Notes under the pieces: model-generated | Database searches by the model: none | Told to the model about the DNA's origin: nothing | Seen by the model: the letters and a program-made list of their open reading frames with translations, nothing else | NCBI GenBank assembly: GCA_964545975.1 | Contig: CAZJHY010000001.1 | Coordinates: forward strand, 24,094-88,093 | Origin: an uncultured Clostridia bacterium | GTDB taxonomy: Bacteria > Bacillota > DTU025 > MWDF01 | Direction: 5' to 3' | DNA: 64,000 nucleotides | Shown: piece after piece, positions 20,794 to 57,107 of the stretch | Layout of the letters: each line of letters opens with the position of its first letter | Numbering within the stretch: position 1 is the first letter of the stretch | Position numbers and translations under genes: made by a program

Positions 20794-20822
20794 GACGAAG
20801 ACAATCCGAACGGAGTGATCAT

Positions 20823-22075: not shown

Positions 22076-22104
22076 GGCAAGGCTTACGAAGGCGGTGTGA
22101 TGCA

Positions 22105-22776: not shown

Positions 22777-22798
22777 TCCTAAAAAGGAGGACGCACCA

Positions 22799-24271: not shown

Positions 24272-24275
24272 TGAT

Positions 24276-25673
24276 ATGAGCATTTACAAGGCCTGCGACA
24301 TAAGGGGAGTCTACCCTTCGTCGCTCGACGAGAAGACGTCATACGATATAGGAGCGGCTTTGGGGGAGATGCTCGGCCCTGTAAGCATGCTCGTCGCAGG
24401 CGACGTGAGGGTCAGCACGCCGCCTTTGAAGCAAAGCCTTATAAACGGCCTTGTGGACGCCGGATGCGAAGTAGTGGACATCGGCATGGCCCCGACCCCG
24501 GCCTTCTACTACGCGCTTCATAAGCTGGGCACCGAGTCGGGCGTGACGGTGACGGCATCCCATAATCCGGCCAAGTACAACGGCTTCAAGATAGCGCCGC
24601 ACGGGCAGCCCATGACTGAAGACGTGATGGACGACCTGAGGAAGATGGTCGAAGCTGGAGGATTCAAGCCATATGGGCAAGGGAGCGTAAGGAAGGCTGA
24701 GGTCATCGAGGATTACAAGAGATTCGTGCTTGATAAGATAGGAGAGCTAACGGGAACGAAGTGCAGCGCTCATGGTTCGAGTAATGCCCTCAAAGCCGTG
24801 GTGGACTGCGGCAACGGCTGCTACAGCACGATAGCCCCTGAAGTTCTAAGGCAAGCTGGCATCGCGGTTGAGGAGCTCTATTGCTGGGAGGATGGAACTT
24901 TCCCTAACAGGGAGCCAAACCCAGCTGTAGCTGAGAATCTCGAGGCTTTATGCGGCAAGGTCAGAGATACGGGGGCAGACCTTGGCATTGCCTTCGACGG
25001 GGACGGTGACAGGGTGGTCTTCGTGGACGAGCTGGGCAAAGTGGTCCCTAGCGACAATGCGATAGCACTTTTCGCCGGCTTCCTCCTTAAGAATCACCCC
25101 GGCTCGAAGGTGGTTTTCGACATCAAGTGCTCAAGCCTTGTGTCGGATTCGATCAAGGCGGCGGGCGGCATTCCAGTGATGGAGAAGTCAGGCCACGCTT
25201 ACATCAAGAACAACCTGCTGAGAAACGGCGCGGTTTTCGCAGGCGAGATCAGCGGGCACTTCTTCTTCCAGGTGCTCAAGGGGGATGACGGGCTGTTCGC
25301 GGCTCTTCTGATGGCCGAGATCATGATGTCGGAGGGCAGAAGCCTGGGGAAGATGGTGGAGTCGCAGCCGAAGTACTTCACTACAAGAGACTTCAGGATA
25401 CCGTTCTCGGGGAGCACGGCCGAGCTGTTCGGAAGGCTCAAAGCGCGCCTTGAGGCAAGCGGAGGCGCAAACCTGTCGTACCTGGACGGCATAAGGGCGG
25501 AGTTTTCTGAAGGCTGGGGGCTTATAAGGGCATCAGTCACTGAGCCACTGGTTACGCTGAGGTTCGAGGGGAAGTCGTTGGAGAGCCTTGATAGGATAAG
25601 GGATAGCTTCCTTGCTGCAGATGAGGACTTGCTTGATGCCGTAAGGGAGGTTTGGGCAAACCATCTTCCTTAG
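24276..25673 (+). CDS. Phosphomannomutase/phosphoglucomutase-family phosphosugar mutase
   Basis: Active-site loop TASHNPAKYNGFK, metal loop FDGDGDR and GEISGH. Confidence 0.9.
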   Translation: MSIYKACDIRGVYPSSLDEKTSYDIGAALGEMLGPVSMLVAGDVRVSTPPLKQSLINGLVDAGCEVVDIGMAPTPAFYYALHKLGTESGVTVTASHNPAKYNGFKIAPHGQPMTEDVMDDLRKMVEAGGFKPYGQGSVRKAEVIEDYKRFVLDKIGELTGTKCSAHGSSNALKAVVDCGNGCYSTIAPEVLRQAGIAVEELYCWEDGTFPNREPNPAVAENLEALCGKVRDTGADLGIAFDGDGDRVVFVDELGKVVPSDNAIALFAGFLLKNHPGSKVVFDIKCSSLVSDSIKAAGGIPVMEKSGHAYIKNNLLRNGAVFAGEISGHFFFQVLKGDDGLFAALLMAEIMMSEGRSLGKMVESQPKYFTTRDFRIPFSGSTAELFGRLKARLEASGGANLSYLDGIRAEFSEGWGLIRASVTEPLVTLRFEGKSLESLDRIRDSFLAADEDLLDAVREVWANHLP

Positions 25674-39311: not shown

Positions 39312-39590
39312 AAGATCGCACAAGATTTTCCCTTGGTAGGACCAAGGCGGGAAGCTTTCTGCGATCAAGCAGTCAAATGATTGTTGTAATCGCCAGCGCG
39401 CGGCCTTCAGGCTATTTAAGTGCAGATATATGAAGTTGACTGAAATGAGTCTGGAATAATTGTTTGCTGATATGAGTATGTGAAATAAATATTTATGTTT
39501 GAGAAGCGCGAAATATGGTGTAGGATTTAGTTGGTTGTCATACCATCATACAAAGCAAGCCTAAATGCTAATGAAGGTTATGGTGGAACG

Positions 39591-40286
39591 ATGAGGATAC
39601 AGCCAATAGAACGTAGTACCCTGCCGGATGCCATTATCGAGCGGATTAAAGGAATGATCATCGACGGGAATCTCAAACCCGGCGACAAGCTCCCTCCCGA
39701 AAGGGATCTGGCTGCCAGCATGCAAGTAGGGAGAGCCACTGTAAGGGAGGCTCTAAAGGCGTTATCTTCAATCGGTCTCCTGCAAAGAAGCACCGAAGGG
39801 ACATATATAAAAGAGAAGATCGAGTACTTCCAGCAACCTCTTACATACAGCCTAATAATGGACCACATAACGCTCAAGGAGCTAATCGAGGCTAGAAGGA
39901 TACTTGAAGTCAAGATTTCTGAATTGGCAGCATTAAGGGCTACTGACGAAGAAATCGCTGGCATAGAAGATGCTGTTATGATACAGAAGATGCACCCGAG
40001 AGATACAGATTACCTCTTCTATGAGGCCGACTTGAAGTTTCATCTGACATTAGCAGCTGCTGCAAAGAATAGGGTTCTCAGCGAGACCATTGTCTGTACA
40101 AGGCATTTGTTGTTTAAGGCGCAGCAGGCAGTGGGTAAACTCCCGGGAATGACAGATAAAGCCCTAGTTAGTCATTCAGCCCTCTTGGAAGCAATCAAGA
40201 GCAAAGATGCCGAGAAGGCCAGAAGCGTAATGGAAGATCATATAGATGACGTGGAAGAAGGCTTCAGGAAGCTCAACTTGATTTAG
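39591..40286 (+). CDS. GntR-family regulator, FadR subfamily (FCD domain)
   Basis: Winged-helix motif KLPPERDLAASMQVGRATVREALKAL, followed by an all-helical C-terminal domain. Start is ATG 39591. Confidence 0.88.
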   Translation: MRIQPIERSTLPDAIIERIKGMIIDGNLKPGDKLPPERDLAASMQVGRATVREALKALSSIGLLQRSTEGTYIKEKIEYFQQPLTYSLIMDHITLKELIEARRILEVKISELAALRATDEEIAGIEDAVMIQKMHPRDTDYLFYEADLKFHLTLAAAAKNRVLSETIVCTRHLLFKAQQAVGKLPGMTDKALVSHSALLEAIKSKDAEKARSVMEDHIDDVEEGFRKLNLI

Positions 40287-40321
40287 TTGGCGATTGGCCT
40301 TCTTTTCTATTTGGGTTCATC

Positions 40322-40335
40322 ATTGGTAGGACAAT
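40322..40335. promoter_or_regulatory. Candidate FadR-subfamily (PdhR/LldR-type) operator
   Basis: ATTGGT-AGG-ACAAT resembles the ATTGGTnnnACCAAT box with one base missing. A second ATTGG occurs 14 nt downstream. The site is about 150 nt upstream of the operon start. Confidence 0.3.
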
Positions 40336-40482
40336 GCGACCATTGGCAATCGCTACAAAAAAGCCATGACTGATGCTGAAGCATAATGAAAATGCTAAGA
40401 CTATTGCGAGTAGCGAGATACCATTAATAGCAATAGATAGGGGCAAGAACCGAACATTCCATCTTGTTAGGAGGAATATCAG

Positions 40483-41451
40483 ATGAGTGGGATCAAGAAA
40501 GTGCTCGTTACAGACTACGTATTCCCCAACTTAGATCCGGAGAAGGCGATCATTGGAGCTGCTGGCGGAGAAGTCATATTCGCCGGAAAAGACGCCGATG
40601 ATGCCAAGATCTTGGAGCTTGCCAAGGACGCGGATGCAATCCTCAACTGCTACAAGAAGATACCTGCCGAGCTTTACTCAACTGCAAGTAAGTGCAAGCT
40701 CATCGTAAGATACGGCATCGGCACAGACACCATAGACATCCCAGAGGCCACGAAGCACCATATTGCGGTGAGCAATATGCCCGACTATTGCATAGACGAG
40801 GTTTCAGACCACGCTTTGACACTCATACTAAGCAGCATAAGGAAGATCACCACTGCCAACAAGCTTATCAAGAGCGGAACTTGGAGCCTCGGTCCTTTGA
40901 AGCCGATAAGAAGACTTAAGACCCTCACGCTTGGTTTGCACGGCTTCGGCCGCATCCCGAGGATGGTAGCTGAGAAGGCGAAGTCATTCGGGTTTAAGAT
41001 CATCGCCTGCGATCCGTACATTAGCAAGGAGTTGGCCGATAAGATGGGAGTCCAGACGGTAAGCTTCGATGAGCTTTGCGCAATGTCGGACGTCATATCG
41101 ATACATGCCCCCCTTACGAAGGAGACCAGCGAGATATTCAACGGAGAAGCTTTTGCAAAGATGAAAGACGGTGTAGTGATAGTTAACACAGCAAGAGGCG
41201 GGCTTATAAAAGAAGCCGACCTGGTTGAGGCACTTAAGTCTGGCAAAGTCGGGGCTGCTGGCTTAGACGTAACCAATCCCGAGCCACCGGCAAAGAACAA
41301 TCCGCTATTCGACTTCGATAATGTGACCTTCACACCGCATGAGGCATGGTATAGCGAGGAAGCGTTGGTAGAGCTACAGAACAAGGCAGCTGGCGAAATT
41401 GCCCGCTCACTTAAGGGAGAACCTCTCAAGTACCAACTCAATAAGCTCTAG
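40483..41451 (+). CDS. D-isomer-specific 2-hydroxyacid dehydrogenase family (NAD-binding)
   Basis: Motifs GLHGFGRIPRMVAEKA and IHAPLT, plus the catalytic R/E/H context (NTARGGLI, TPHEAW). Confidence 0.88.
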   Translation: MSGIKKVLVTDYVFPNLDPEKAIIGAAGGEVIFAGKDADDAKILELAKDADAILNCYKKIPAELYSTASKCKLIVRYGIGTDTIDIPEATKHHIAVSNMPDYCIDEVSDHALTLILSSIRKITTANKLIKSGTWSLGPLKPIRRLKTLTLGLHGFGRIPRMVAEKAKSFGFKIIACDPYISKELADKMGVQTVSFDELCAMSDVISIHAPLTKETSEIFNGEAFAKMKDGVVIVNTARGGLIKEADLVEALKSGKVGAAGLDVTNPEPPAKNNPLFDFDNVTFTPHEAWYSEEALVELQNKAAGEIARSLKGEPLKYQLNKL

Positions 41452-41462
41452 GAAGGGTGCAG

Positions 41463-42677
41463 ATGTATAAGACTGCCTGGAGAATTGCGCCTAGGGAGTA
41501 TCCCGGGGTGCCCAATATTAGAGAGGCCGTCAAAGAAGCTCTAAGGAAGCCTTTGGGGATTGGCCTTGCTGAACTGGTCAAGCCTGGCAACAAAGTAGCG
41601 ATTGCCGTGGATGATCTTACCAGGCCTACACCACAGGCGGAGCTTCTACCCGTCATCCTAGATGAGCTGGCAATGCTGGGCATCGACGAAAAGGACATAA
41701 CAATTATCATCGGGCTCGGTGCGCACAGGCGCATGAGCAAGGCAGAGATCGAGACCCGTTTCGGGGCTGCAGCGCAGAGGGTAGGCGCAATAATCAACCA
41801 CGATGTGGAAGACTGTATAGCGATAGGAAGGACCTCAACGGGTGGCGATATTGCCGTTAATAGGATTTTCTGTGAGGCTGATGCCAAAATTGCGGTTGGT
41901 TGCATTCTGCCCCACATATATGCGGGGTGGAGCGGCGGCGCAAAAATGATTCAACCTGGAATATCCAGCGTGAAGACCACAACGCACGTACACAGAATTG
42001 CCAATTTGCACCTTTACGAGATACTCGGCAATACCGAGAACCTCGTGAGAATTGAAATGGAACAGATAGCAGCACTTGCTGGTCTGAAATTCATTATCAA
42101 TGTCGTGCTCAATGACAAAAACGAAGTTATCGCCGTCGTCGCTGGGGACACAGTGGAGGCTCACAGGAAGGGCGTCGGCAAAGCCGAGAAGGTTTACGGT
42201 TGGAACGGCTTGAAACCCGTGGACGTAGCGGTAGCGTACGCACCTGGTGTAGCAACAGACCTCTGGCAAAGCGCAAAGAGCCTTACGGTCGGTGCGATGG
42301 CAATCAAGCAGGGTGGAACTGTGGTGCTAGTCGCAGCCTGCCCCGAGGGGATTGCGCCTGGGCACCCGATAATAAAGGAATTGGGAACAGCCTCTTTCGA
42401 AGAGGTGCTGTACAAGGTAGATAATGGGCTCTTGGAAGATACGGTAGGGGCGTTGGTCCATATGACCATAGCCAAATGCCGGGAAAAAGGCAGGGTGATA
42501 CTAGTGTCATCCGGCATATCAAAACAAGAGGCAACCTGTCTGGGAATGGAGTCAGCAGCCGATGTGGAAGAGGCATTGAGAATGGCCGTCAGCCGTTACA
42601 ATGTTGCGCCTGAGGTCGGCTTCATAGAGTGCGCTGGCGAGTTGTCTATTTCAATTAAGGAGGAATACTGCAAATGA
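41463..42677 (+). CDS. LarA-like nickel-pincer-cofactor-dependent 2-hydroxyacid racemase/epimerase homolog (DUF2088)
   Basis: Motifs VDDLTRPTP, GLGAHRRM and LPHIYAGWSGGAK. These carry His and Lys at the positions recalled for the LarA catalytic His residues and the cofactor-tethering Lys. Start is ATG 41463 or GTG 41457. Confidence 0.8.
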   Translation: MYKTAWRIAPREYPGVPNIREAVKEALRKPLGIGLAELVKPGNKVAIAVDDLTRPTPQAELLPVILDELAMLGIDEKDITIIIGLGAHRRMSKAEIETRFGAAAQRVGAIINHDVEDCIAIGRTSTGGDIAVNRIFCEADAKIAVGCILPHIYAGWSGGAKMIQPGISSVKTTTHVHRIANLHLYEILGNTENLVRIEMEQIAALAGLKFIINVVLNDKNEVIAVVAGDTVEAHRKGVGKAEKVYGWNGLKPVDVAVAYAPGVATDLWQSAKSLTVGAMAIKQGGTVVLVAACPEGIAPGHPIIKELGTASFEEVLYKVDNGLLEDTVGALVHMTIAKCREKGRVILVSSGISKQEATCLGMESAADVEEALRMAVSRYNVAPEVGFIECAGELSISIKEEYCK

Positions 42678-43924
42678 GCGAATGGAAAAAGGAAGAGCTA
42701 AACGGCAAACCTTGGTTCGACAATGAGAAATTCTGGGGATCCCCGCATAACTACTCGCCCAGTATCACGAAGCTTCTACCTAAGAGCGTCTATATCCATG
42801 ACGTGACTCTCCGGGACGGCGAGCAGACCCCGGGAGTGGCATTCAAAGCTGACGAAAGAATAGTTATCGCCGAAGCCCTTAACGAATTGGGAGTGGCGAG
42901 AATCGAAGCCGGGATGCCCATAGTCTCCAAGGATATCGCCAACGGCATAAAGAAGCTCGTCAATATGAACCTCAAGTCGCAGGTAGTCGCCTTCGCCAGA
43001 GCACATAAGGACGACATCAATGCCTCTCTCGACTGTGGTGTTAAGGCAATCGTAGTAGAGCATACAGTAAACCCGTACCTTTGCAGATGGGGCTATGACC
43101 TCACAGAGGACAAGGTAATCGAGAGGCTCATCACCAGCGTCAGGATGGCTAAGGACAATGGTCTGCATACAACGTTCATGGGTTGGGACTTCTTCAGAGC
43201 CCCGCTCGATTTCTCCAAGAAGATCTACACAGAAGTAGTCAAGAACGCACATCCCGACGCCCTTACATTAGTAGACACCCTCGGCGTTGCCACACCGGCA
43301 GCAGTCCAGGAGACCTTCGTCGAGTTCAGGAAGATGTTCCCCGATATGGTGCTTGAGTTCCACGTGCATAACGACTATGGTATGGCAGTAGGCGCAGTCC
43401 TCGCAGCAGTGATTGGCGGCGCAAACGGCATCCACACCGCAATGAACGGCATAGGCGAGAGGACCGGCAACGTTGCGACAGAGGAAGTCTGTATGGCCCT
43501 TGAAATGCTCTGGGGCATAAAGACCGGCGTAGACACCACCAAGTTCATGTATGTCAGCAAGATAGTGGAGGAGATCTCCAAGTTCAAGCTCGCCAAGAAC
43601 AAGCCCATAGTCGGCGAACACCTCTTCGATATCGAATCCGGCGTTGTTACCCATATCGTCAACGAGATGAATAAGCAGGGCTTCAAGCCTGTTATGACAC
43701 CGTTCACACCCGAAATGGTTAATCAGAAGCCCGTCCGTTTCGTCCTTGGCAAGGGATCAGGAAAGGTCACCATTCTACAGCATTTGGACAAGCTTGGTAT
43801 CAAGTGCACTGATGAGCAGGCAGACGAGATAACCGAAGAAGTCAAGGCCTACGGAAGAGTCATGAAGGCTCTACTCAGCGATGACGACCTCGTAAGAATA
43901 ACTAAGCGCATCCTGGCAAAGTAA
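42674..43924 (+). CDS. HMGL-like / 2-isopropylmalate-homocitrate-citramalate synthase family (DRE-TIM metallolyase) protein
   Basis: Motifs HDVTLRDGEQTPG and HVHNDYGMAV...NGIGERTGN. It has no LeuA-type C-terminal regulatory domain. Its start forms an ATGA overlap with the LarA-like gene. Confidence 0.85.
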   Translation: MSEWKKEELNGKPWFDNEKFWGSPHNYSPSITKLLPKSVYIHDVTLRDGEQTPGVAFKADERIVIAEALNELGVARIEAGMPIVSKDIANGIKKLVNMNLKSQVVAFARAHKDDINASLDCGVKAIVVEHTVNPYLCRWGYDLTEDKVIERLITSVRMAKDNGLHTTFMGWDFFRAPLDFSKKIYTEVVKNAHPDALTLVDTLGVATPAAVQETFVEFRKMFPDMVLEFHVHNDYGMAVGAVLAAVIGGANGIHTAMNGIGERTGNVATEEVCMALEMLWGIKTGVDTTKFMYVSKIVEEISKFKLAKNKPIVGEHLFDIESGVVTHIVNEMNKQGFKPVMTPFTPEMVNQKPVRFVLGKGSGKVTILQHLDKLGIKCTDEQADEITEEVKAYGRVMKALLSDDDLVRITKRILAK

Positions 43925-43959
43925 GGGTCCAGCTAAAAAAGAAAGGAGTCTAAAAAAGA

Positions 43960-45099
43960 ATGAAGCTGAACAGAATTCTAGTTGCATTCTCAATCCTGGC
44001 GCTAATGATGGTAGCGACAGTAGGAGCAGCAGCTCCGAAGACTTACAAAATCGCCCATCTATCGCCACTGACCGGCTCCGCATCATCCTACGGCTACTAC
44101 ATGGTAAACGCCGCCAAGATGGCCGTTGAGGAAATCAACGCCAAAGGTGGAGTCAACGGAGTAATGCTGGAGTACATGGAAATCGATGAGACTTCCAACT
44201 CGGCTCAAGCCATTGACGCAGCTTACAAGGCAGTCGCATGGGATCCGCTAGTAATACTAGGCCCCAACCGCTCCGGCGGTGTACTTGCCGCAGAGTTCGT
44301 ATGGAAAGAGGCCAAGATCCCCACAATAACCGACGGAACGAGCGCTGAGACAACTAGGAAGGGCAACCCCTATACTTTCAGGATGCAGATCTCCTCTGAG
44401 TATTGGATCCCGTTGCTCGTCCGTACGGCCGTTGAAGTATACAAGTCGAAGAAGATTGCCGTCATGTACGGCCTCAATGACTATTCCAAGGCCAACTGGG
44501 TTGCCACTGAACCCGCGATGAAGAAGTACGGCATCACCCCAGTAACGGTTCAGACGTTCAACGACGGCGACCAGGACTTCACAGCCCAGCTGCTGAAGGT
44601 AAAGGCCTCCGGCGCCGATGCTCTGTTCGTATACTCCTACACGCCTGAAATCGGCATGATCCTCAAGCAGAGGGCCGAGCTTGGTATGCCTAACCTGCTC
44701 GTATTCAGCGAGCGCGCGGCAAGCGTCCCCTCAGTTGAGGACCTCGCTGGCACCAAGAACTATGAGGGTCTCGTCTGCACAACCACCCTGTCCCCCGGAG
44801 ACCCAAGGCCAGGCGTGCAGAAGTTCATTAAGGACTACGAAGCCAAGTATAAGCACATCGTATCCTCGACGCATATCAATCACTACGACTCCGTATACAT
44901 CGTAGCTGACATTATCAAGAGGGTCGGTCCCGACCGTGAGAAGATCAGGCAGGAACTCGCCAAGCTGGATTACGTAGGCGTACTAGGCCACTATGTAGCC
45001 GATAAGGAAGGCAACTTCGTACACACCATGTACACCCAGGTCCGCGAGAACGGCAAGTGGAAGCTGCTCTTGACGGAGGAGTATCCGGTAGTAAGGTAG
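43960..45099 (+). CDS. ABC transporter substrate-binding protein (Leu/Ile/Val-binding family, second system)
   Basis: Signal peptide followed by YKIAHLSPLTGSASSYG. Confidence 0.9.
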   Translation: MKLNRILVAFSILALMMVATVGAAAPKTYKIAHLSPLTGSASSYGYYMVNAAKMAVEEINAKGGVNGVMLEYMEIDETSNSAQAIDAAYKAVAWDPLVILGPNRSGGVLAAEFVWKEAKIPTITDGTSAETTRKGNPYTFRMQISSEYWIPLLVRTAVEVYKSKKIAVMYGLNDYSKANWVATEPAMKKYGITPVTVQTFNDGDQDFTAQLLKVKASGADALFVYSYTPEIGMILKQRAELGMPNLLVFSERAASVPSVEDLAGTKNYEGLVCTTTLSPGDPRPGVQKFIKDYEAKYKHIVSSTHINHYDSVYIVADIIKRVGPDREKIRQELAKLDYVGVLGHYVADKEGNFVHTMYTQVRENGKWKLLLTEEYPVVR

Positions 45100-45113
45100 T
45101 CTAGTAACAGTCG

Positions 45114-45137
45114 CCCGGCGCGGGTAACCGCGCCGGG
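45114..45137 (+). promoter_or_regulatory. Intercistronic perfect 10-bp GC hairpin with a GTAA tetraloop after the substrate-binding protein gene
   Basis: CCCGGCGCGG-GTAA-CCGCGCCGGG, located between the stop at 45099 and the permease ribosome-binding site AAGGAGG (45154-45160). Confidence 0.6.
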
Positions 45138-45169
45138 TAACCTTGCTTATCGTAAGGAGGCTTAAGCCC

Positions 45170-46057
45170 TTGAACCTCACAACTTTGATTCAATTGGTTA
45201 TCAACGGACTGGCCATGGGCCTTCTCTATGCGCTTCCCGCGCTGGGCATCTCCCTTATCTGGAACGCCTCCGGGCTTTTCAACTTCGCTCAAGGGGACCT
45301 GCTTACATTTGGGGCATACATCATGCTATCGCTCTTCAGCAAAGTGGGCCTGCCTTACGTGCTGTCCTTCCTGCTCACATTTCTGCTTTTGGGTTCGATA
45401 GGCTACATACTCAGCTCAATCTACTTCTACCCGATGTTCCGGGCTAGGATAAACCCCCAGATCATACTAATAGGCACGGTCGCCCTTTCTGTATTCATAA
45501 GGAATGCGATCCTTCTAATCTGGGGCCCCCATGCTCAGTCCTACCAGAACCCGTTCGGCTCGTCCGCCATCCAGTTTGGCGAGGTATATGTCATGCCGCA
45601 CATTTTCGGCATATTCATAATAGTCACCCTGCTGTTGGGCGCTTTACAGCTGTTCCTCAGGGGCACGATCACAGGCATCGGCATGAGGGCGGTCGCCCAA
45701 AGGCCCGTAGCCTCGTCTCTGATGGGAATAAAGAACAACAGGATGGTGGCCCTCACATTCTTCATGTCGACAGGCATAGCTGCTGTGTCAGGCATATTGA
45801 TCGCCCCAATACTTCCTCTGACGCCTGAAACCGGCGGCATGATAGCCATCAAGGCCTTCGCTGCGGTACTTATCGGAGGCCTGGGAAGCTTCTCAGGAGC
45901 GCTCGTAGGAGGCATAGCCGTCGGCATAACCGAGATGGTTTTTGCCACCTTGCTGGCTCCGACCTACAAGGACGTCTTCATATTCATAGTCCTTGCGATA
46001 TTCCTGGTATTAAGGCCCGGCGGCATATTCAGGGCCCAGATATCAGAGAAAGTGTAG
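45170..46057 (+). CDS. ABC transporter permease (LivH-like)
   Basis: Polytopic membrane protein. The preferred start is TTG 45170, 9 nt after AAGGAGG. The ORF opens at TTG 45143. Confidence 0.85.
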   Translation: MNLTTLIQLVINGLAMGLLYALPALGISLIWNASGLFNFAQGDLLTFGAYIMLSLFSKVGLPYVLSFLLTFLLLGSIGYILSSIYFYPMFRARINPQIILIGTVALSVFIRNAILLIWGPHAQSYQNPFGSSAIQFGEVYVMPHIFGIFIIVTLLLGALQLFLRGTITGIGMRAVAQRPVASSLMGIKNNRMVALTFFMSTGIAAVSGILIAPILPLTPETGGMIAIKAFAAVLIGGLGSFSGALVGGIAVGITEMVFATLLAPTYKDVFIFIVLAIFLVLRPGGIFRAQISEKV

Positions 46058-46067
46058 GAGGGGTCAC

Positions 46068-47021
46068 ATGCGTGCAGTGTTAAAGTTTTTGAAGGACAAA
46101 GCATTCTTCGCCCTGGCGCTGTTCCTTGTGATCGCACCTTATGTGATGCAGCGCTACCAGTTCTACATCCTGCAGCGCGGGGTGCAGAACTCGATACATG
46201 TGCTGGGCTTGGTCATACTAGTAGGCTTCACGGGCCTTCTGTCATTGGGTCATGCGGGCTTCGTGGCGCTGGGGGCCTACGCCTACGGGATTGCAATGGT
46301 GAAGCTGGGGCTTCCTGTATGGGCGGCGCTCATTATAGCGCCCCTATTCTCTATGCTCATCAGCATGTTGCTGGCATATCCTTCCTTCAAGCTATCGGGC
46401 CCGTTCCTAGTGGTTATCACGATAGCCTTCGGCGAGATAGTGAGGATATTGATACTTAACCTGCAGGGCATCACAGGAGGTCCTTACGGACTGACGGGGT
46501 ACAAAGTGCTCTTCACAAACTCCAAGGTGCTCTACTACGTCATGCTCGGAACATTGTTCCTGCTTGCCCTGTTTGTTCGGAGGCTCGGCAACTCCAGAAT
46601 CGGACTTGCTTTCAAGGCAATCAAGGAGGACGAGGTCGCAGCAGACGTCATGGGCGTAAACGTCAGGAAGCACAAGCTCATGGCATTCATGCTAAGCTCG
46701 GCGCTGGCCGGCCTTTCAGGCGTGTTCCTTGCGAGCCTTACAAGGTACATCAACCCAGACTCGTTCACGTTCGCGGAGAGCTCGACCTACCTTCTGATGG
46801 TGGTCATGGGCGGTATGCAGAATGTGTTCGGCGCGATAACCTCGACCATAGTCATCACAGCGCTCCCTGAGGTGTTGAGGTTCCTTGCGCGCAGCAGGCT
46901 GCTTATATACTCACTAACGCTTCTGGTATATCTCAGGATGTACGGCAACAAGGGCGGCCTACTGCAGATGTTCGGCATTAAGCCCAAGAAGGCGAATATA
47001 AATACAGGTTCGAGGAGCTGA
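46068..47021 (+). CDS. ABC transporter permease (LivM-like)
   Basis: Polytopic membrane protein with LLSLGHAGFVALGAY. Confidence 0.88.
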   Translation: MRAVLKFLKDKAFFALALFLVIAPYVMQRYQFYILQRGVQNSIHVLGLVILVGFTGLLSLGHAGFVALGAYAYGIAMVKLGLPVWAALIIAPLFSMLISMLLAYPSFKLSGPFLVVITIAFGEIVRILILNLQGITGGPYGLTGYKVLFTNSKVLYYVMLGTLFLLALFVRRLGNSRIGLAFKAIKEDEVAADVMGVNVRKHKLMAFMLSSALAGLSGVFLASLTRYINPDSFTFAESSTYLLMVVMGGMQNVFGAITSTIVITALPEVLRFLARSRLLIYSLTLLVYLRMYGNKGGLLQMFGIKPKKANINTGSRS

Positions 47022-47025
47022 GACT

Positions 47026-47808
47026 ATGGAACTACTAAGGACTGAGGGCATAGTCAGGAAGTTCGGCGGCCTTGTGGCTGTCAGCGAACTTTGCGTGAAC
47101 GTCAACGAGGGCGAGATAGTGGCACTTATCGGTCCCAACGGTTCAGGAAAGACCACAGCCCTGAACCTCATCACGGGCATCTACTCATGCGATGAGGGAA
47201 AGATACTGCTGAAGGGCCAGGAGATCCAGAGCGCGGCCCCCTTCTCGATAACGCAGAAGGGAATAGCCAGGACCTTCCAGAACATAAGGATACTCGAGTC
47301 CCTCTCCGTTTTCGACAACGCGAGGCTTGGAACCATATTCTCCACGAAGTCCAACCTGCTGGACATCGCCCTTGAGACGCCAAGGTTCAGAAGGGAGAAG
47401 AAGGCGGTGACAGAGGAGGTCAACAAGGTCCTGGATTTCGTGGGACTTCTGGACCAGGCGAATGAGATTGCCGCCAACTTGCCTTACGGCAAGAAGAGGG
47501 CGCTTGAGATCGCAAGGGCGCTTGTAACGAAGCCCAACCTGCTTCTTCTGGACGAGCCCGCGGCTGGTCTGAATACGCAGGAAGTCTACAACCTAATGGA
47601 GCTCATTAAGAAGATAAGAGGCCTTGGCATCACCATATTCCTGGTAGAGCATAGGATGGAGCTAGTCGGCGGCCTCGCTGACAGGGTCTACGTGCTCAAC
47701 TACGGCAAAAAGATCTGCGAGGGCCCGTTCTGCGACATCAAAGAGGACACCTCCGTCATCGAGGCGTATCTCGGCAAGAGGAGGCAGGTCGATGCTAAAG
47801 GTAGATAA
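47026..47808 (+). CDS. ABC transporter ATP-binding protein (LivG-like)
   Basis: Motifs GPNGSGKTT, YGKKRALEIAR and LLLDEPAAG. Confidence 0.9.
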   Translation: MELLRTEGIVRKFGGLVAVSELCVNVNEGEIVALIGPNGSGKTTALNLITGIYSCDEGKILLKGQEIQSAAPFSITQKGIARTFQNIRILESLSVFDNARLGTIFSTKSNLLDIALETPRFRREKKAVTEEVNKVLDFVGLLDQANEIAANLPYGKKRALEIARALVTKPNLLLLDEPAAGLNTQEVYNLMELIKKIRGLGITIFLVEHRMELVGGLADRVYVLNYGKKICEGPFCDIKEDTSVIEAYLGKRRQVDAKGR

Positions 47809-48517
47809 GGTCGTAGTCGCCTACGGCGTAGCCCCGGTAATCCATGAAGTCTCGCTTACCGTCCCCGACGGCAAGATCGTAACGCTCCTCGGTGCCAACG
47901 GCGCCGGCAAGTCTACGATACTGAAGACCATATCCGGCCTCTTGAAGCCCATAAGCGGAGAGGTAACATTCGACGGAGCGGTAATATCAAAGGAGCCGCC
48001 CGAAGCGATAGTAAAAAGAGGTATAGCTCACGTTCCGGAGGGAAGGCTCGTGTTCCCCGGGCTCACTGTGCTTGAGAACCTGAAGATGGGATCCTACGTG
48101 ATAAGGCACAAGCGGAAGAACCTCAAAGAGAACTTAGAAAAGGTGTATGAGCTGTTCCCCAGGCTACTTGAGAGGAAGAACCAGACCGCCGGTACGCTAT
48201 CAGGCGGAGAGCAGCAGATGCTCGCCATCGGCAGGGGCCTCATGAGCGAGCCTAAGCTTCTTATGCTTGACGAGCCGTCGCTGGGGCTTGCTCCCGTAAT
48301 CATCGACAGCATCATCGACAAGATAATCGAGATCAACAAGCAGGGGATGACCATCCTCCTGATAGAGCAGAACGCGCATCTGGCCCTTGAAGTCTGCGAC
48401 TATGGTTACTTGCTTTCTGTCGGCAACATAATGATGCACGGCGAGAAGCAGAAGCTGGTGAGCGAAGAGGGCATGATTAATGCCTATCTGGGCGGAGGCA
48501 AGCAGGAGGCCGTCTGA
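47792..48517 (+). CDS. ABC transporter ATP-binding protein (LivF-like)
   Basis: Motifs GANGAGKST, LSGGEQQML and LMLDEPS. Confidence 0.9.
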   Translation: MLKVDKVVVAYGVAPVIHEVSLTVPDGKIVTLLGANGAGKSTILKTISGLLKPISGEVTFDGAVISKEPPEAIVKRGIAHVPEGRLVFPGLTVLENLKMGSYVIRHKRKNLKENLEKVYELFPRLLERKNQTAGTLSGGEQQMLAIGRGLMSEPKLLMLDEPSLGLAPVIIDSIIDKIIEINKQGMTILLIEQNAHLALEVCDYGYLLSVGNIMMHGEKQKLVSEEGMINAYLGGGKQEAV

Positions 48518-49704
48518 TGAAGATCCTTATATGCAATGTGGGTAGCACTTCATTGAAGTACCGCCTGTTCGAGGACACTGCATGGGAATGCATATCAAAG
48601 GGCAAGGTGGAGAGGATCGGCAGCGATAGCTCCACCTTCCAGTTTTCATTGCTCAATGGGGCAGTCCAAAGCGGCACAGTCGCGATAACGGACTATGAGT
48701 CCGCGATATCCCTGATGCTAGAGCACCTGGTGGGGGCTGCAGCTCCGCTAAAAAGCCTGGAAGAGCTGTCTGCCGTAGGCTTCAAGGTAGTGCACGCTAA
48801 GGGCATAACTGGCGTGCAGCTGCTGGATGAGCGGGTCATAAAGGCCATGGAGGACTACAACTCCATAGCGCCTGCGCATAATCCCCCCTATATAAAGGCC
48901 ATTAAGATATTCTCCAAACTTCTTCCCGGAGTGCCGATGGTGGGAAGCTTCGAGACCGGCTTTCATTCCAGGATGCCGAGATGCGCATATCTCTACGGCA
49001 TACCCTATGAGTGGTATGAGAAGTACGGTATAAGAAGGTACGGATTTCACGGGGCATCGCACCAGTACGTATCGGAGAGGATCACGGCGCTTCTCGGTCA
49101 CAGGCCAAAGAGGCTTATTACATGCCACCTTGGCGGAAGCTCATCGCTTTGCGCCATCAAGGACGGCGTATCTATAGATACTAGCCTTGGCTTCTCTCTT
49201 CAAAGCGGCGTCGAGCACCAATACAGGTGCGGGGACATCGATTCATTTATCATGCCGTTTCTTATGAAAAGCGCAGGTATGAGCGAGGAAGATATCGAGA
49301 TTGGCATGACGAAGAAGGGCGGCTTAGCCGGAATCTCCGGGCTGTCGGGAGACATAAGGGACCTTGAGGAGGCTTCGGGGGCCGGCAACGACCGCGCCCT
49401 TGCGGCGCTCGAAGTGTTCGCCTATGAGGTGAAGAAATACATAGGGGCATATGCCGCGGCTTTAGGAGGCGCCGATGCCATCTGCTTTGCAGGCGGAATC
49501 GGTGAAAACGGTTCAAAGATGCGCGCAAGGATTCTGAAAGGTATGGAATACCTGGGTATCGAGATAGACGAAACAAAAAATTACGAGCTCAAGGGCGAAG
49601 GGGAGATTTCTGCGCCTGAATCCAAAGTGAAGGTCTTCATAATCCCGACCGATGAAGAGCAGATAGTAGCTAAGCTAACAATAAACCTTGTAAAAGGGGC
49701 ATAG
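48517..49704 (+). CDS. Acetate/propionate/butyrate kinase family (ASKHA) acyl-phosphate kinase
   Basis: N-terminal ILICNVGSTSLKY, plus GFHGASH and the family length of about 395 aa. Its start codon shares one base with the ATPase stop codon (TGATG). Confidence 0.85.
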   Translation: MKILICNVGSTSLKYRLFEDTAWECISKGKVERIGSDSSTFQFSLLNGAVQSGTVAITDYESAISLMLEHLVGAAAPLKSLEELSAVGFKVVHAKGITGVQLLDERVIKAMEDYNSIAPAHNPPYIKAIKIFSKLLPGVPMVGSFETGFHSRMPRCAYLYGIPYEWYEKYGIRRYGFHGASHQYVSERITALLGHRPKRLITCHLGGSSSLCAIKDGVSIDTSLGFSLQSGVEHQYRCGDIDSFIMPFLMKSAGMSEEDIEIGMTKKGGLAGISGLSGDIRDLEEASGAGNDRALAALEVFAYEVKKYIGAYAAALGGADAICFAGGIGENGSKMRARILKGMEYLGIEIDETKNYELKGEGEISAPESKVKVFIIPTDEEQIVAKLTINLVKGA

Positions 49705-49732
49705 TTGCCGGTTGTCCGGTAGAGGAGCAAAA

Positions 49733-50020
49733 ATGGACAAGCGTACATTGATGATTAATGAGGAAGACAACGTTGCGACTGCTATGCAAAAGATCATGCC
49801 AGGAGACAAGCTGGACGGTTACGTCGCCCTTCAGGTGATACCGTTCGGGCACAAGGTTTCGGTAGTCCCGATTATGAAGGGAGAGCACATTATCAAATAT
49901 GGCGAAGTGATAGGGGTCGCCAGCGTCGATATAAGAGCTGGTGAACACGTGCATATTCACAACATGGATGGGATCAGGGGAAGAGGGGATGTTTACTCAG
50001 AACCGGGTCATAAGGAGTAG
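49733..50020 (+). CDS. SAF-domain small subunit of a split UxaA/GarD/SuyAB-family dehydratase/lyase
   Basis: The sequence INEEDNVATA ... IPFGHKV ... GEHIIKYGEVIG ... AGEHVHIHN matches the altronate-dehydratase N-terminal (SAF) module. Start is ATG 49733 after GAGGAG. Confidence 0.8.
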   Translation: MDKRTLMINEEDNVATAMQKIMPGDKLDGYVALQVIPFGHKVSVVPIMKGEHIIKYGEVIGVASVDIRAGEHVHIHNMDGIRGRGDVYSEPGHKE

Positions 50021-50023
50021 ACA

Positions 50024-51196
50024 ATGAATCAAAATACAAACCAGTTCATGGGGTACCTCAGGGAGAACGGCACAGTCGGCGTTAGGAACTACGTTTTAAT
50101 CCTACCTACCGTAGTTTGCGCCAATGCCACTGCAAGATCGATTGCTTCCATGGTGCCGGGCAGCACCGTTGTAACTCACCAGCACGGTTGTGCCCAGCTA
50201 GGAGCGGATTTTGCGCAGACACAAAGGACGCTTATTGGCTTAGGAAAGAACCCTAATGTCAGATCTGTACTTGTTGTGGGGCTCGGCTGCGAGAACATGG
50301 AAGGTGAGGTTGTCGCGGTTTCAATTGCAACAACTGGCAAGAAAGTAGAGCTCATCACCATACAGAAGCTTGGCGGCACATTGAAGGCAACCGAGCTGGG
50401 AGTTCGCATCGCATCTGAGATGATGCGATCAAAGTCAACCGACTTAAGGGTCCCAGTAGGAATAGAGAAGCTTACGCTCGCACTCGAGTGCGGGGCCTCT
50501 GATTCGACTTCGGGAATAACAGCTAACCCCGCAACCGGGATTGCTGTGGATATGCTTGTCGAAAAGGGAGGCTCAGCCATACTCTCAGAGACTCCGGAAA
50601 TGATAGGAGCGGAACACATTCTGGCCAAGAGATGCTTCTCGATAGTAGTTAAAGACGCCTTGTACGGTATTATCGGAGATGCTGAGAGGGGCATAAGTGG
50701 CATGGGCGTAGACGTTAGAGGCTCGAATCCGACACCTGGGAATATTGCAGGTGGCTTAAGCAGCATAGAGGAGAAGTCCCTTGGTTGCATCTACAAGGCT
50801 GGGTCTGGCAAGATAATGCAGGTAGTCAGATATGCCGAGACACCCACCGAGAAGGGTCTTGTTATAATGGACACACCAGGTCATGATGTAGAATCGATGA
50901 CAGGGATGGCTGCAGGTGGTGCTCAGGTTTGCGTTTTCACGACCGGCCTTGGCGCAGTAACAGGATTTCCTATAATGCCTGTCATCAAGGTATGCGGCAA
51001 TCCTAGGACAAGCGCCTTCATAAGCGATAACATTGATATCGACGCGGGCCAAGTGCTAGATGGCAAGGCTAGCCTCCAGCAGGTGGCGGAGCAGATTTTA
51101 TGCGAGGTCATGGAAGTCTCGTCGGGCAAAGCCACCAAGGCTGAGAGCCTCGGATATGCAGACATCGCGATTAACAGAATCGGCCCTACTACATGA
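50024..51196 (+). CDS. UxaA-family large subunit (altronate/galactarate dehydratase C-terminal or SuyB-like)
   Basis: Motifs GYLRENGTVGVRNYVLILPTV.CAN, HQHGC and GLGCE, typical of the UxaA C-terminal domain. It begins 3 nt after the small-subunit stop. Confidence 0.85.
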   Translation: MNQNTNQFMGYLRENGTVGVRNYVLILPTVVCANATARSIASMVPGSTVVTHQHGCAQLGADFAQTQRTLIGLGKNPNVRSVLVVGLGCENMEGEVVAVSIATTGKKVELITIQKLGGTLKATELGVRIASEMMRSKSTDLRVPVGIEKLTLALECGASDSTSGITANPATGIAVDMLVEKGGSAILSETPEMIGAEHILAKRCFSIVVKDALYGIIGDAERGISGMGVDVRGSNPTPGNIAGGLSSIEEKSLGCIYKAGSGKIMQVVRYAETPTEKGLVIMDTPGHDVESMTGMAAGGAQVCVFTTGLGAVTGFPIMPVIKVCGNPRTSAFISDNIDIDAGQVLDGKASLQQVAEQILCEVMEVSSGKATKAESLGYADIAINRIGPTT

Positions 51197-52215
51197 TTGT
51201 AGATAAGGAAATGAGGGATTCTTCGGAAAGGTACAGAATGCAGAAGTTCAAGAAATGGGTCGAAGAGAACGGCTTGAGGTTCGCTTTCTTCAGAAGCTGC
51301 GATATCGACATGGCGGTGTCTAGGGTACGCAACCTTGCTCCTGCCATAGACCAGGTGATCTTCAATAGGTATTTCGAAAGCTTCAAGACGTCTGGCGAGC
51401 TTGGGCTTTCAGCGGAAGAGCTGGCTCTCATTATCTACATCCCCAAGGAAGTCCGCACTGTTCAGTTCGAACTCTGCGATAAACGATATGAGGCGAGCAT
51501 CCCACCGCCCATATACTGCGATGAACCTTCCGATATCGATGAGTTCGACAAGGCGGTGAACGATAGGCTCGACGGTAAAGCAAGACCAGTAAGATTGCCC
51601 ATGAAATCATTGAGCGTGCTGCTTGGCATCTCACGCTATGGCAGGAACAACATCACCTATATCGATGGATTAGGAAGCCTTTTCATCATGCGATCTTATG
51701 CGGTGAAGGGGCTTGATGAGAACGATATCGAAATCAGCAAGCCGCTGGGTGGGTTCATCGATGAGGACTTGCAATGCCCGGAGTGCGATGGCTGTTTCGC
51801 ATGTATTGCCTCATGCCCTACAGGCGCTATCTCAAACGATCGTTTCCTATTGCATGCTGAGAGGTGTATGACCTACCATAACAAGAATGACAAGGAATTT
51901 CCAGCATGGATTGACGGAAGCTCTCACAATTGCATCTTCGGATGCCTTCAATGCCAAGTCTGCTGCCCGATGGATTTTGGCAAGCTAATCAAGAAGCCAT
52001 CGGGAGTAGTTTTCGATGAAGATGAGACCAGGTACCTTGTAGGAATCCACGAGACTTCTGAAGTCAAGGCCATCGAGGCAGGAATTGAAAGTAAGCTCGC
52101 AAAACTGGGCATAGCATATCTGAGAGAGTTGATGCCAAGAAACCTAAGAGCCCTCTTCGCAAGCGGGAATCTTATAAACACGGAGCCAAAGTTGGAGGAA
52201 ACTGATGCCAAGTAA
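51193..52215 (+). CDS. QueG/reductive-dehalogenase-like 4Fe-4S dicluster protein
   Basis: Two ferredoxin-type Cys motifs are present (CPECDGCFACIASCPTGAI and CIFGCLQCQVCCP). The upstream LPMKSLSVLLGISRYGRNN resembles the epoxyqueuosine-reductase core. Its start forms an ATGA overlap with the UxaA-like gene. Confidence 0.55.
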   Translation: MIVDKEMRDSSERYRMQKFKKWVEENGLRFAFFRSCDIDMAVSRVRNLAPAIDQVIFNRYFESFKTSGELGLSAEELALIIYIPKEVRTVQFELCDKRYEASIPPPIYCDEPSDIDEFDKAVNDRLDGKARPVRLPMKSLSVLLGISRYGRNNITYIDGLGSLFIMRSYAVKGLDENDIEISKPLGGFIDEDLQCPECDGCFACIASCPTGAISNDRFLLHAERCMTYHNKNDKEFPAWIDGSSHNCIFGCLQCQVCCPMDFGKLIKKPSGVVFDEDETRYLVGIHETSEVKAIEAGIESKLAKLGIAYLRELMPRNLRALFASGNLINTEPKLEETDAK

Positions 52216-54590: not shown

Positions 54591-55016
54591 CTACTTGGCA
54601 GGCATATCGGGCCTCTCAAGCTCACCATAGGCCTTAAGAAGGATGCCTATCTGACCTGAGAGCCTCTCCATGCGCCTCATCCAGGAAGCTAGCTGGACCA
54701 TGCCCTCTTCGCTAAGCATGTAGACCCGCCTTGCCGGACCTGTGCCGCTTGTGTCCCACTCGGAGTAGGTGAAACCCATCATGTCCATCCTTCTGAGGGT
54801 GCGATAGACAGCTGCCTGATCCATCTCAGTGTCTGCAACAGATAGCCTGGATGCCTCCTGGGCTATCTGGTACCCGTGCGCCTTTCCCAGCTTTGCAAGG
54901 GCTATGGCGACTACAGGCACCATGAACCTGAACATCTTGCCGAGCCCGTGTCCCTCCATGCCCCCCTCAATGCCGCGCATCCTGCCCAACCCGAAACCGC
55001 CTCTTGCTCCGTGCAT
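54591..55016 (-). CDS. PadR-family transcriptional regulator
   Basis: Motifs HGYQIAQE and VYRTLRRMDMMGF...RRVYMLSEEG. The protein has an unusual Gly/Met-rich N-terminal extension. Confidence 0.8.
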   Translation of the reverse strand: MHGARGGFGLGRMRGIEGGMEGHGLGKMFRFMVPVVAIALAKLGKAHGYQIAQEASRLSVADTEMDQAAVYRTLRRMDMMGFTYSEWDTSGTGPARRVYMLSEEGMVQLASWMRRMERLSGQIGILLKAYGELERPDMPAK

Positions 55017-55143
55017 GATATCACTCCTTTAAGTGTCATTAACATCTATATACATTAAGCATAATGATGTGTCAATAGAGAAAGTAAAGCGATGGCGTTG
55101 ACACGGAAGCTTTGCTGTGCGATTTTCATATTGAGGTGATCGA

Positions 55144-55362
55144 ATGATTGAGATAAGGGGCAGGGTTCCCCTCGAGAAGTACTCCGGTTTCTTACCAGTC
55201 TCTTCTGACACAAAGGTAAGGCAGCTCTTCGACATCCTCGGCATCCCCGAGGATCTCAGAGGTTACATACTTGCCATAAGAAACGGCAAGATAATCCAGC
55301 ACAGCGACATTGTTGCGGACGGAAGCGCAATCGATCTGATTATTATCCCCGAGGGCGGTTGA
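55144..55362 (+). CDS. ThiS/MoaD-like beta-grasp small protein ending in Gly-Gly
   Basis: 72 aa with a GAGGTGA ribosome-binding site. The C-terminus is ...ADGSAIDLIIIPEGG followed directly by the stop codon, which is the classic sulfur-carrier/ubiquitin-like terminus. Confidence 0.55.
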   Translation: MIEIRGRVPLEKYSGFLPVSSDTKVRQLFDILGIPEDLRGYILAIRNGKIIQHSDIVADGSAIDLIIIPEGG

Positions 55363-55496
55363 TCCTCGAAGGCATCCGAAAAACATGTGAAATGTGCCGC
55401 TGAAAAGGCGGCACATCTCTTATACCTGAAGGAATATGTCAACAGATGAAGAAACATACTCCGACGGGCCGACAGCCCGTAAAAGGAGTGAGGCAT

Positions 55497-57107
55497 ATGG
55501 CAATGAGGATGATCAAATTCCTCGCGGCGGCTATCCTTCTATCAATGCTAACCGGCGCAGCCGCCGGAGCGCCTGTTCCTGTGACGCCCCTGATAAACCT
55601 TCCGCCTTCTGTCCTTACTACGAAGATAACCAGCCTTGCCCTCTCAAACCTCATAACCATGGGCGATGTCGAGGGGACCACCTTCGGGGCATCAAGAAAC
55701 CAGATGGTGGCTCTTGACGCTGAGGGCAAGGTGACAAGGACCATAGCGATACCGATAGAGCAGCCCGCAGGCATATCGGCATATACGGCGGGCAAGGCGA
55801 TAGTGGGCGACGCTGGGACCGGCTCGGTTTTCTCGGTGGACGTCAGGTCAGGCCAGGCGATTAAGCTGCTGGACTTAAGGTCCACCCAAGCCGGAAGCCT
55901 GATTGCAGGCGATATCCTGAAAAGCGGCAGGCTTTCGAGCGTGGCATTCGACGGCAAATATGTATACGTGGCGATATCGGCAGGATACTCAAGCTCCATT
56001 TTCGCGGTCGACCCTGCGACCAACAGGGCGCTCATGCAGGCATGGTCGCCTGGAGACGAACCGACCGCCATGCAGTTCACGGCAGGAAACCTCTATGTGC
56101 TGGACGGGGCGAACGGACAGCTGAGGCTCTATGATTCCGCGTTCAAGCTAAGCATGCAGTCCATCGACCTTGCAGTACCCGATGCGAAAGGCATAGTCAT
56201 AAGGGGCAACGAAGTAAGGGTGCTCTCGCCTACGGAAAGGAGCATCACCCTTCTTAAGCCGGACCTGAACCTTCTCAAGATACAGCTGATAGAACCGGTC
56301 TGGCGGCCGATAGATGTGGTGATCGGCCCCATACTCACACTTGCGAGGCACTATGCCCTCCTTATCTGCGGCGATGTCGCCGAGAGCGGGTACGATGAGT
56401 TCTGGAACGACACCGTATGGATGTACAAGACGCTTCTTGACGCAGGGTACAAGGAGGACAATATTTATGTCCTCTATGGCTGGGGAAACGATTACATCTC
56501 AGCCAATCCAAACTACAAGCACGCCAGCAAGGTCACCGACTTCCCGGCTACAGTCGCATGGGTGAACAAAGTCCTGAACGGCTTGAAGAACGGAGACTCC
56601 TCCATAGGGGTCAACAAGCTGACGGCGAATGACAGCCTGTTCATTTGGGTGTTCGACCATGGAGGAGGGGGAAACCCCGCATACTTCTGCCTTAGAGACG
56701 GAGTGTATTACGATTCGGATTTCGCCAACAGCCTGAACCCCCTTCCTTACAGCAAGAGGGCGATTTTCATGCAGCAGTGCAGAAGCGGAGGCTTCCTGGA
56801 CAACATGCAGAATGACAGGAGCTTCGTGTCTACAGCCTGCCTTTGGAGCGAGAATGCGCACAGGTCAGATTCGGAGAATGAAACCTACGGAGGGAAAATA
56901 TACCATCACGGCGAGTACAATTACTATGTAATAAGCGCTTTGGCAGGCAAGACCGCGACTGGCGCCTCCGTGAACGCGGACAGCAACGGAGACGGCAAGA
57001 TAAGCGCCAGGGAGATGCACCAGTTCATGAGCGCCAGGGAGAATCAGCCCGAGACCCCGCAGATATGGGACAGCTTCGGAATAGGTAGCAGCTTCGCGGT
57101 GAAGTAA
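55497..57107 (+). CDS. Secreted beta-propeller-like domain fused to a legumain-like (peptidase C13, caspase-fold) cysteine peptidase
   Basis: It has a signal peptide (MAMRMIKFLAAAILLSMLTGAAAGA). The C-terminal half aligns by eye with legumain: RHYALLICGD, IWVFDHGG (catalytic His) and IFMQQCRSGGF (catalytic Cys). Near the C-terminus is an EF-hand/dockerin-like loop, DSNGDGKISAREM. The ORF opens at 55446. Confidence 0.75.
   Translation: MAMRMIKFLAAAILLSMLTGAAAGAPVPVTPLINLPPSVLTTKITSLALSNLITMGDVEGTTFGASRNQMVALDAEGKVTRTIAIPIEQPAGISAYTAGKAIVGDAGTGSVFSVDVRSGQAIKLLDLRSTQAGSLIAGDILKSGRLSSVAFDGKYVYVAISAGYSSSIFAVDPATNRALMQAWSPGDEPTAMQFTAGNLYVLDGANGQLRLYDSAFKLSMQSIDLAVPDAKGIVIRGNEVRVLSPTERSITLLKPDLNLLKIQLIEPVWRPIDVVIGPILTLARHYALLICGDVAESGYDEFWNDTVWMYKTLLDAGYKEDNIYVLYGWGNDYISANPNYKHASKVTDFPATVAWVNKVLNGLKNGDSSIGVNKLTANDSLFIWVFDHGGGGNPAYFCLRDGVYYDSDFANSLNPLPYSKRAIFMQQCRSGGFLDNMQNDRSFVSTACLWSENAHRSDSENETYGGKIYHHGEYNYYVISALAGKTATGASVNADSNGDGKISAREMHQFMSARENQPETPQIWDSFGIGSSFAVK

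Follow-up and report, generated by a model that had tools for sequence, protein, structure and literature searches.

In a 64,000-nucleotide stretch of DNA from an uncultured Clostridia bacterium (hereafter the window) we find a gene for a 72-residue ubiquitin-like protein, here called Ubl, that ends in Gly-Gly and can be assigned with near certainty to the ThiS/MoaD superfamily of beta-grasp proteins. Our preferred interpretation, held with moderate confidence when taken as a whole, is that Ubl is a sulfur carrier activated in trans, and a member of a subfamily associated with aldehyde:ferredoxin oxidoreductase (AFOR), a tungstopterin enzyme. The gene and its ribosome-binding site lie as follows:

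55144..55362 (stop codon included), + strand: Ubl gene, encoding the 72-aa ThiS/MoaD-family beta-grasp protein with terminal Gly-Gly; ATG at 55144, stop codon at 55360-55362
55133..55138, + strand: Ubl ribosome-binding site GAGGTG, 5 nt before the ATG; read from the sequence and invariant in 4 orthologous loci

The translation, MIEIRGRVPLEKYSGFLPVSSDTKVRQLFDILGIPEDLRGYILAIRNGKIIQHSDIVADGSAIDLIIIPEGG, runs directly into the stop codon, and its last residues read PEGG. A preliminary description of this locus had proposed a 72-aa open reading frame with a good ribosome-binding site and a Gly-Gly end, and it was exact on coordinates, ribosome-binding site and Gly-Gly end alike.

Fold and family of Ubl

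The same description had called the protein a beta-grasp protein of ThiS/MoaD type, a proposal to be checked by hidden Markov model searches and structure prediction and to be given up if another fold emerged. Both analyses were run, and structure model, Foldseek, family profile and Pfam all bear the assignment out. AlphaFold2, run on the family alignment, gave a confident model (pLDDT 85.9) with secondary-structure elements in the order b1-h-b2-a1-h-b3-b4-b5, i.e. a predicted five-stranded beta-grasp fold; the model's top Foldseek matches are TtuB (first), MTH1743, ThiS, SAMP1 and MoaD. At the level of the family, similarity to the PF02597 (ThiS) superfamily is evident both from the members themselves, 9 of 13 of which match the Pfam model (best E=6.8e-6), and from searches of the PDB with the family profile, which retrieved SAMP2 of Pyrococcus furiosus (5lda_B, E=7.7e-7), PF1061 (1rws, E=1.3e-6), MTH1743 (1ryj, E=8e-6) and TtuB (5ztb, E=0.009), all aligned in register to the terminal Gly-Gly. 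The exact Gly-Gly terminus is present in 13/13 family members.

These relatives are not easily found. A word-indexed single-sequence homolog search returned Ubl itself and one variant of 93% identity only, and it took an exhaustive phmmer search over 1.84 billion representative proteins (E<=1e-3) to recover the family. This search gave 11 matches, six of them full-length proteins of 72-73 aa; a profile search then raised the family to the 13 sequences on which the alignment counts given here are based. The family is small (about 8 clusters at 50% identity), its members are 72-73 aa long, Gly-Gly-ended and all from Bacillota, and M1, Y13, P35, D59, G71 and G72 are invariant among the 13 sequences, which span 28-100% identity. 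An N-terminal motif G-x-x-x-L-E-K-Y-S is characteristic of it.

The other five phmmer matches (e.g. P0012 and P0016) were discarded as long repeat proteins in which similarity is confined to a motif L-x-D-I-L-G-V-P-D-E-L. P0012, P0014 and P0016 are long secreted proteins with repeats that contain Cys and span about 70-80 aa, and the motif they have in common with Ubl is L-x-D-I-L-G-V-P-D-E-L-D-G; judged from sequence, the match looks like coincidence rather than homology.

The Ubl gene is under strong purifying selection

Compared with close orthologs of 93% amino acid identity on other contigs, the Ubl gene differs at 29-45% of synonymous sites and at about 3% of non-synonymous ones, which corresponds to a ratio of non-synonymous to synonymous substitution (dN/dS) of 0.05-0.09 (dS 0.37-0.68, dN 0.034). 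Start codon and ribosome-binding site are kept across the orthologous loci compared. The reading frame is therefore a genuine gene under strong purifying selection, and not a chance open reading frame, because dN/dS is low and because length and terminal Gly-Gly are kept down to 28% identity. Lack of conservation, which the preliminary description had named as grounds for rejection, is thus not what we observe: homologs as distant as 28% still have 72-73 aa and end in Gly-Gly.

Distant relatives of Ubl are encoded in AFOR operons

The functional context comes from the family members that are 28-35% identical to Ubl, all of which, where contigs are long enough, sit in AFOR operons. Two independent arrangements occur. 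In the first, the order is GntR/FCD - Ubl - RraA-like - Ldh_2 - AFOR - cupin - TRAP DctQMP - Zn-ADH, and the hosts are Thermovorax subterraneus, a metagenome-assembled genome (MAG) of the Tepidanaerobacteraceae and several metagenome contigs; a scan of metagenomes added one more GntR-Ubl locus. The second, found in a single other lineage, runs AP_endonuc_2 - Ubl - AFOR and places Ubl immediately upstream of AFOR. The sole partner common to both arrangements is AFOR. The operons of the first arrangement in the Thermovorax and Tepidanaerobacteraceae relatives are:

L009, 7277-15225
L011, 4666-12625
L016, 7274-15267

As a side observation, this first arrangement pairs a tungsten aldehyde oxidoreductase (AFOR) with organic-acid uptake, the RraA-like protein belonging to an aldolase/decarboxylase family.

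The members closest to the window's own protein (36-100% identity, termed type A) align with the AFOR-linked members over 72 gapless columns (hhalign probability 99.1%, E=5e-19), so that at the level of sequence profiles the two sets form one family. No E1 gene was found within +/-8 kb of the AFOR-linked loci either; for the Ubl family, an E1 gene at a distance is accordingly the norm.

The AFOR-linked part of the family fits a published class. MoaD genes linked to AOR have been described as a predicted 'tungsten cofactor biosynthesis' neighbourhood class whose products would make the molybdopterin needed for AOR's tungsten cofactor (Iyer, Burroughs & Aravind 2006, PMC1779556), and ThiS-family genes are likewise linked to AOR in archaea (Makarova and Koonin, PMC2948915). 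In Aromatoleum aromaticum, aorD and aorE encode MoaD-like putative maturation factors of the tungsten cofactor (PMC6365974), and in Thermococcus kodakarensis TK1065/UblC adjoins AOR, its deletion lowering AOR activity to ~54% and abolishing FOR activity (PMC11323500). Akin to AorD/AorE and TK1065, Ubl is a small beta-grasp protein that stands alone and has a Gly-Gly end; its relatives of 28-35% identity occupy AFOR operons in two independent arrangements, and the E1 is not necessarily adjacent. Ubl departs from this class in that the window's gene and the whole 36-100% clade lie away from AFOR and from any cofactor gene, and in that most AFOR-linked relatives have RraA-like and Ldh_2 genes, which are catabolic, between Ubl and AFOR.

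Resemblance to other known carriers is less complete. SAMP2/PF1061 of Pyrococcus furiosus (5lda, 1rws), MTH1743 (1ryj) and TtuB of Thermus (5ztb, 5gha) give the best profile matches, are of similar size (~65-77 aa) and are the top Foldseek matches, but Ubl is only ~15-25% identical to them and its family has the N-terminal motif of its own; moreover, proteins of the SAMP2/TtuB type act in tRNA thiolation and/or conjugation with archaeal or Thermus partners (TtuA, JAMM), and no such partners occur in the contexts of the Ubl family. With MoaD (Escherichia coli 1fm0/1jwb, Staphylococcus aureus 2q5w, human MOCS2A 5mpo) Ubl has the Gly-Gly end in common and, in the model, a short helix between strands 1 and 2, which is listed as a MoaD feature (PMC1949818); it is shorter, however (72 aa vs ~77-84), its profile E-values to MoaD chains are 0.7-1.2, and it has no moaE, moaA or moaC neighbour. 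With ThiS (E. coli 1f0z/1zud, Geobacter 2k5p/3cwi) it agrees in Pfam family PF02597, size, fold and Gly-Gly end, whereas the profile E-values to ThiS chains are ~1 and no thi-gene context exists in the window or in relatives.

The locus in the window lacks partner genes

Two genes flank Ubl:

54591..55016, - strand: PadR-family regulator, divergent from Ubl (PF03551, E=2.3e-12)
55497..57107, + strand: secreted C13 (legumain-like) cysteine peptidase, starting 134 nt 3' of Ubl (PF01650, E=7.4e-9)

These are the neighbours that the preliminary description had named, a divergent PadR gene and, 134 nt downstream, a legumain-like peptidase with signal peptide, and Pfam and sequence agree with it. 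Its observation that no partner gene lies within 8 kb not only holds but can be widened to all 64 kb of the window, in which Pfam scans of practically every plausible gene gave no ThiF/MoeB-type E1, MoaE, ThiG/ThiH, JAB, PP-loop thiolase or AFOR. Nothing in the surroundings resembles a dedicated MoaD, ThiS or ubiquitin-like conjugation locus, as MoaA, MoaC, MoeA and MoaE are missing from the 64 kb and from the flanks of relatives, thiF, thiG, thiH, thiO, thiC and thiE from the window and from every relative's locus, and E1, E2 and JAB domains from the window. PADLOC reported nothing for Ubl or its neighbours, Bil/Bub-type ubiquitin-like defence systems included, and an Rfam search near the Ubl gene yielded no match above noise and no riboswitch, the Moco kind included.

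Type A genes occur only in MAGs of uncultured Clostridia/Bacillota; a locus search with the type A alignment returned such MAGs and one probably spurious match in Dongiaceae. Carriers of a type A gene include GCA_002070415.1 (Firmicutes bacterium ADurb.Bin153) and the assemblies to which contigs CAZNZD010000002.1, CAZHKX010000017.1 and JAKQNF010000033.1 belong. In this clade Ubl is always divergent from a PadR operon, which comprises PadR by itself (the case in the window) or P-type ATPase-PadR. The other side of the gene varies with the lineage: the C13 peptidase is directly downstream in the window and its 93%-identity relatives; in the lineage of 46-47% identity Ubl is followed by VanZ and then by the peptidase; and in that of 36% identity the order is Ubl - VanZ - convergent GGDEF, the peptidase being absent. 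Neither VanZ nor the C13 peptidase is thus a constant partner, and the type A region as a whole is syntenic among related genomes.

In light of these comparisons, the earlier view of Ubl as an orphan in an atypical context stands in one respect, in that the locus itself is partnerless, but not in the other, because relatives are AFOR-linked and solitary carrier genes are common elsewhere. A carrier gene standing alone with its E1 encoded elsewhere is indeed a common situation: MoaD seldom adjoins MoeB (PMC1779556) and the T. kodakarensis gene for the tRNA-thiolation Ubl, tk1093, is monocistronic (PMC11323500). The solitary state of the Ubl gene poses no mechanistic puzzle, nor is it rare. The preliminary description had added that its view would fall if orthologs normally sat in standard thiamine or molybdopterin operons, and this comes close to what we find: relatives of 28-35% identity are AFOR-linked, a pterin-cofactor context, while type A genes are not.

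A proposed role as a trans-activated sulfur carrier

We propose that Ubl, predicted to fold as a beta-grasp protein with a flexible C-terminal tail (...PEGG in the sequence), would be adenylated at Gly72 by an E1 of MoeB/ThiF type whose gene lies elsewhere in the genome. A persulfide donor would turn the adenylate into a C-terminal thiocarboxylate, from which sulfur would pass to a small-molecule acceptor, most probably with a MoaE-type partner, and give the dithiolene of molybdo- or tungstopterin for AOR-family enzymes. We infer this pterin-dithiolene step because of the gene context of the relatives and the published work on Ubls adjacent to AOR. In the window's clade, where the gene is separated from AFOR, the protein would act in trans. 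C-terminal activation and sulfur-carrier chemistry appear likely to us, whereas a pterin (W/Mo) cofactor as the target is put forward tentatively.

Several observations weigh against the proposal. Neither the window nor the flanks of the orthologous contigs contain a gene of molybdenum or tungsten cofactor metabolism, AFOR, MoaE and MoeB included, and neither Ubl nor any part of the 36-100% identity clade is adjacent to AFOR or in an operon with it; the loss of AFOR linkage throughout this clade could point to a change of function. The context that argues for an AFOR role comes from relatives that are only 28-35% identical to Ubl. Sulfur-carrier chemistry is itself a prediction, made from sequence, for every member of the subfamily. 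Ubl on its own scores 20.0 bits against Pfam ThiS PF02597 (E=0.001), below the gathering score of 22.5, and an NCBIfam scan of it gave nothing at E<=1. Finally, the closest solved relatives by profile are SAMP2 and TtuB, which are tRNA-thiolation proteins or protein modifiers, and not classical MoaD.

With Ubl and its relatives the ThiS/MoaD sulfur carriers gain a small subfamily that had not been annotated before, but no new kind of system. Most sources label the family members hypothetical, most of which score under the Pfam and NCBIfam thresholds, and the AFOR-linked loci provide two further examples of AOR-Ubl gene linkage in Bacillota. An apt annotation of the Ubl gene would be 'MoaD/ThiS family sulfur-carrier protein'.

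Alternative functions

The alternative that fares best is that Ubl carries sulfur for another acceptor, either for tRNA 2-thiouridine, in the manner of TtuB, SAMP2 or UblA and together with a PP-loop enzyme of TtuA/NcsA type whose gene lies elsewhere, or for the thiolation of cysteine, homocysteine or a secondary metabolite in the manner of CysO, HcyS or QbsE. The rank of SAMP2/PF1061 and TtuB in the profile searches and of TtuB in Foldseek argues for it, as do the absence of AFOR linkage in the window's clade and the fact that tk1093 of T. kodakarensis is likewise solitary and monocistronic (PMC11323500). We nevertheless consider it unlikely: no PP-loop thiolase, CysM/MetY, JAB or E1 gene is found in the context of any family member, and AFOR is the sole partner to recur in independent arrangements.

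Less probable again is a role as a protein modifier of the SAMP/TtuB kind, in which Gly72 would be joined to lysines of target proteins, perhaps in a protein that was repurposed and came under the control of PadR along with envelope genes (VanZ, the secreted peptidase). The terminal Gly-Gly is invariant, SAMP2 is a conjugated modifier, and all three T. kodakarensis Ubls are both sulfur carriers and conjugate-forming proteins (PMC11323500); in addition, the divergent pairing with a PadR operon is kept across the 36-100% identity clade and the intergenic region is highly conserved. However, no E2-like, JAB/deubiquitinase or E1 gene lies near any member and PADLOC gave no Bil/Bub match, the whole region is syntenic in related MAGs so that adjacency to PadR may reflect shared ancestry, and conjugation is compatible with a sulfur-carrier role.

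A related and similarly improbable scenario is that type A Ubl parted from the tungsten-enzyme operon and took on a new function. The protein could then be a stress-inducible Ubl serving as protein modifier or sulfur donor, paired with PadR or PadR-ATPase and often followed by VanZ, in organisms that may lack AFOR. A new role would follow for the clade if type A organisms lacked AFOR, MoaE and E1.

That Ubl works with the downstream C13 peptidase as substrate, inhibitor or chaperone, a functional link that the preliminary description had raised as speculative, is very improbable and was not borne out. The two genes are on the same strand, 134 nt apart, and occur together in the locus at 46-100% identity. 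The neighbourhood comparison shows, on the other hand, that their adjacency is not conserved among type A lineages: VanZ stands between them at 46-47% identity, the peptidase is absent at 36%, and AFOR-linked members lack it altogether. A signal peptide is present in the peptidase but not in Ubl; Ubl already ends in Gly-Gly and needs no processing; and a 12-bp hairpin follows its stop codon. We regard the C13 peptidase as a bystander, outside the Ubl system.

A functionless chance reading frame or degenerating remnant, as the shortness of Ubl, its sub-threshold Pfam score when taken alone and its very small family might suggest, is ruled out for practical purposes by the selection analysis (dN/dS 0.05-0.09 at dS 0.37-0.68), the length and terminus kept to 28% identity, the confident fold prediction and the conserved ribosome-binding site.

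Regulatory elements around the Ubl gene

Two non-coding elements adjoin the gene:

55017..55143, no strand assigned: PadR-Ubl intergenic promoter/operator region, 127 nt, shared by both divergent genes
55389..55419, + strand: G+C-rich stem-loop with a 12-bp stem, 27 nt after the Ubl stop codon, with a weak T-tract on the + strand

Loci that differ at 29-45% of Ubl synonymous sites retain 90% identity in the intergenic region, which is more conserved than those sites. The region contains a promoter-like site at 55039-55068 and an inverted repeat GTGTCAA-N22-TTGACAC (arms at 55069-55075 and 55098-55104), the right arm of which holds a TTGACA -35-like hexamer; from its sequence, this repeat is a possible PadR operator common to the divergent PadR and Ubl genes. 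The palindrome at 55389-55419 was listed as a terminator-like site of the minus strand, and the same palindrome can be read on the plus strand. The hairpin is likely to be a transcript-end or stabilising element and, as it follows the Ubl stop codon, transcription of Ubl would therefore be at least partially separated from that of the peptidase gene.

Neighbouring genes and other content of the window

The PadR protein has a Gly/Arg/Met-rich N-terminal extension of ~35 aa (MHGARGGFGLGRMRGIEGGMEGHGLGKMF...) before its winged-helix domain, and its nearest NCBIfam models are PhaQ-type repressors, with scores well under the cut-off. The C13 peptidase has a His motif VFDHGGGG and a Cys motif MQQCRSGGF, both intact, and a hydrophobic N-terminus resembling a signal peptide. 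Its architecture is unusual, the signal peptide being followed by a beta-propeller-like N-terminal region of ~290 aa (a weak PQQ_2 match) and then by the C13 domain, and its C-terminus bears an EF-hand/dockerin-like calcium-binding motif, DSNGDGKISAREM. Further 3' lie genes for a GGDEF cyclase (- strand), a SpoVB-like flippase, two MFS_3 transporters and a PHP protein.

The window encodes catabolic clusters for sugars and organic acids, transporters of the ABC, TRAP and MFS types, and regulators. The cluster at 17620-25673, to be seen with the sugar ABC transporter at 12152-16696, includes a protein resembling the RuBisCO large subunit (18876-20132; PF00016, E=2.5e-39) together with UPF0261, two class II aldolase-family proteins, RpiB/LacAB, triosephosphate isomerase, an FGGY kinase and PGM/PMM, and looks like a sugar or sugar-acid pathway built around a RuBisCO-like (form IV) protein. 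The genes at 39531-52215, a candidate organic-acid pathway, follow a GntR/FCD regulator and encode a 2-hydroxyacid dehydrogenase, a LarA-like protein of the lactate-racemase family, an HMGL-like protein, a branched-chain-type ABC transporter, an acetate-kinase-family protein, SAF and altronate/galactarate dehydratase proteins and a QueG-like 4Fe-4S protein.
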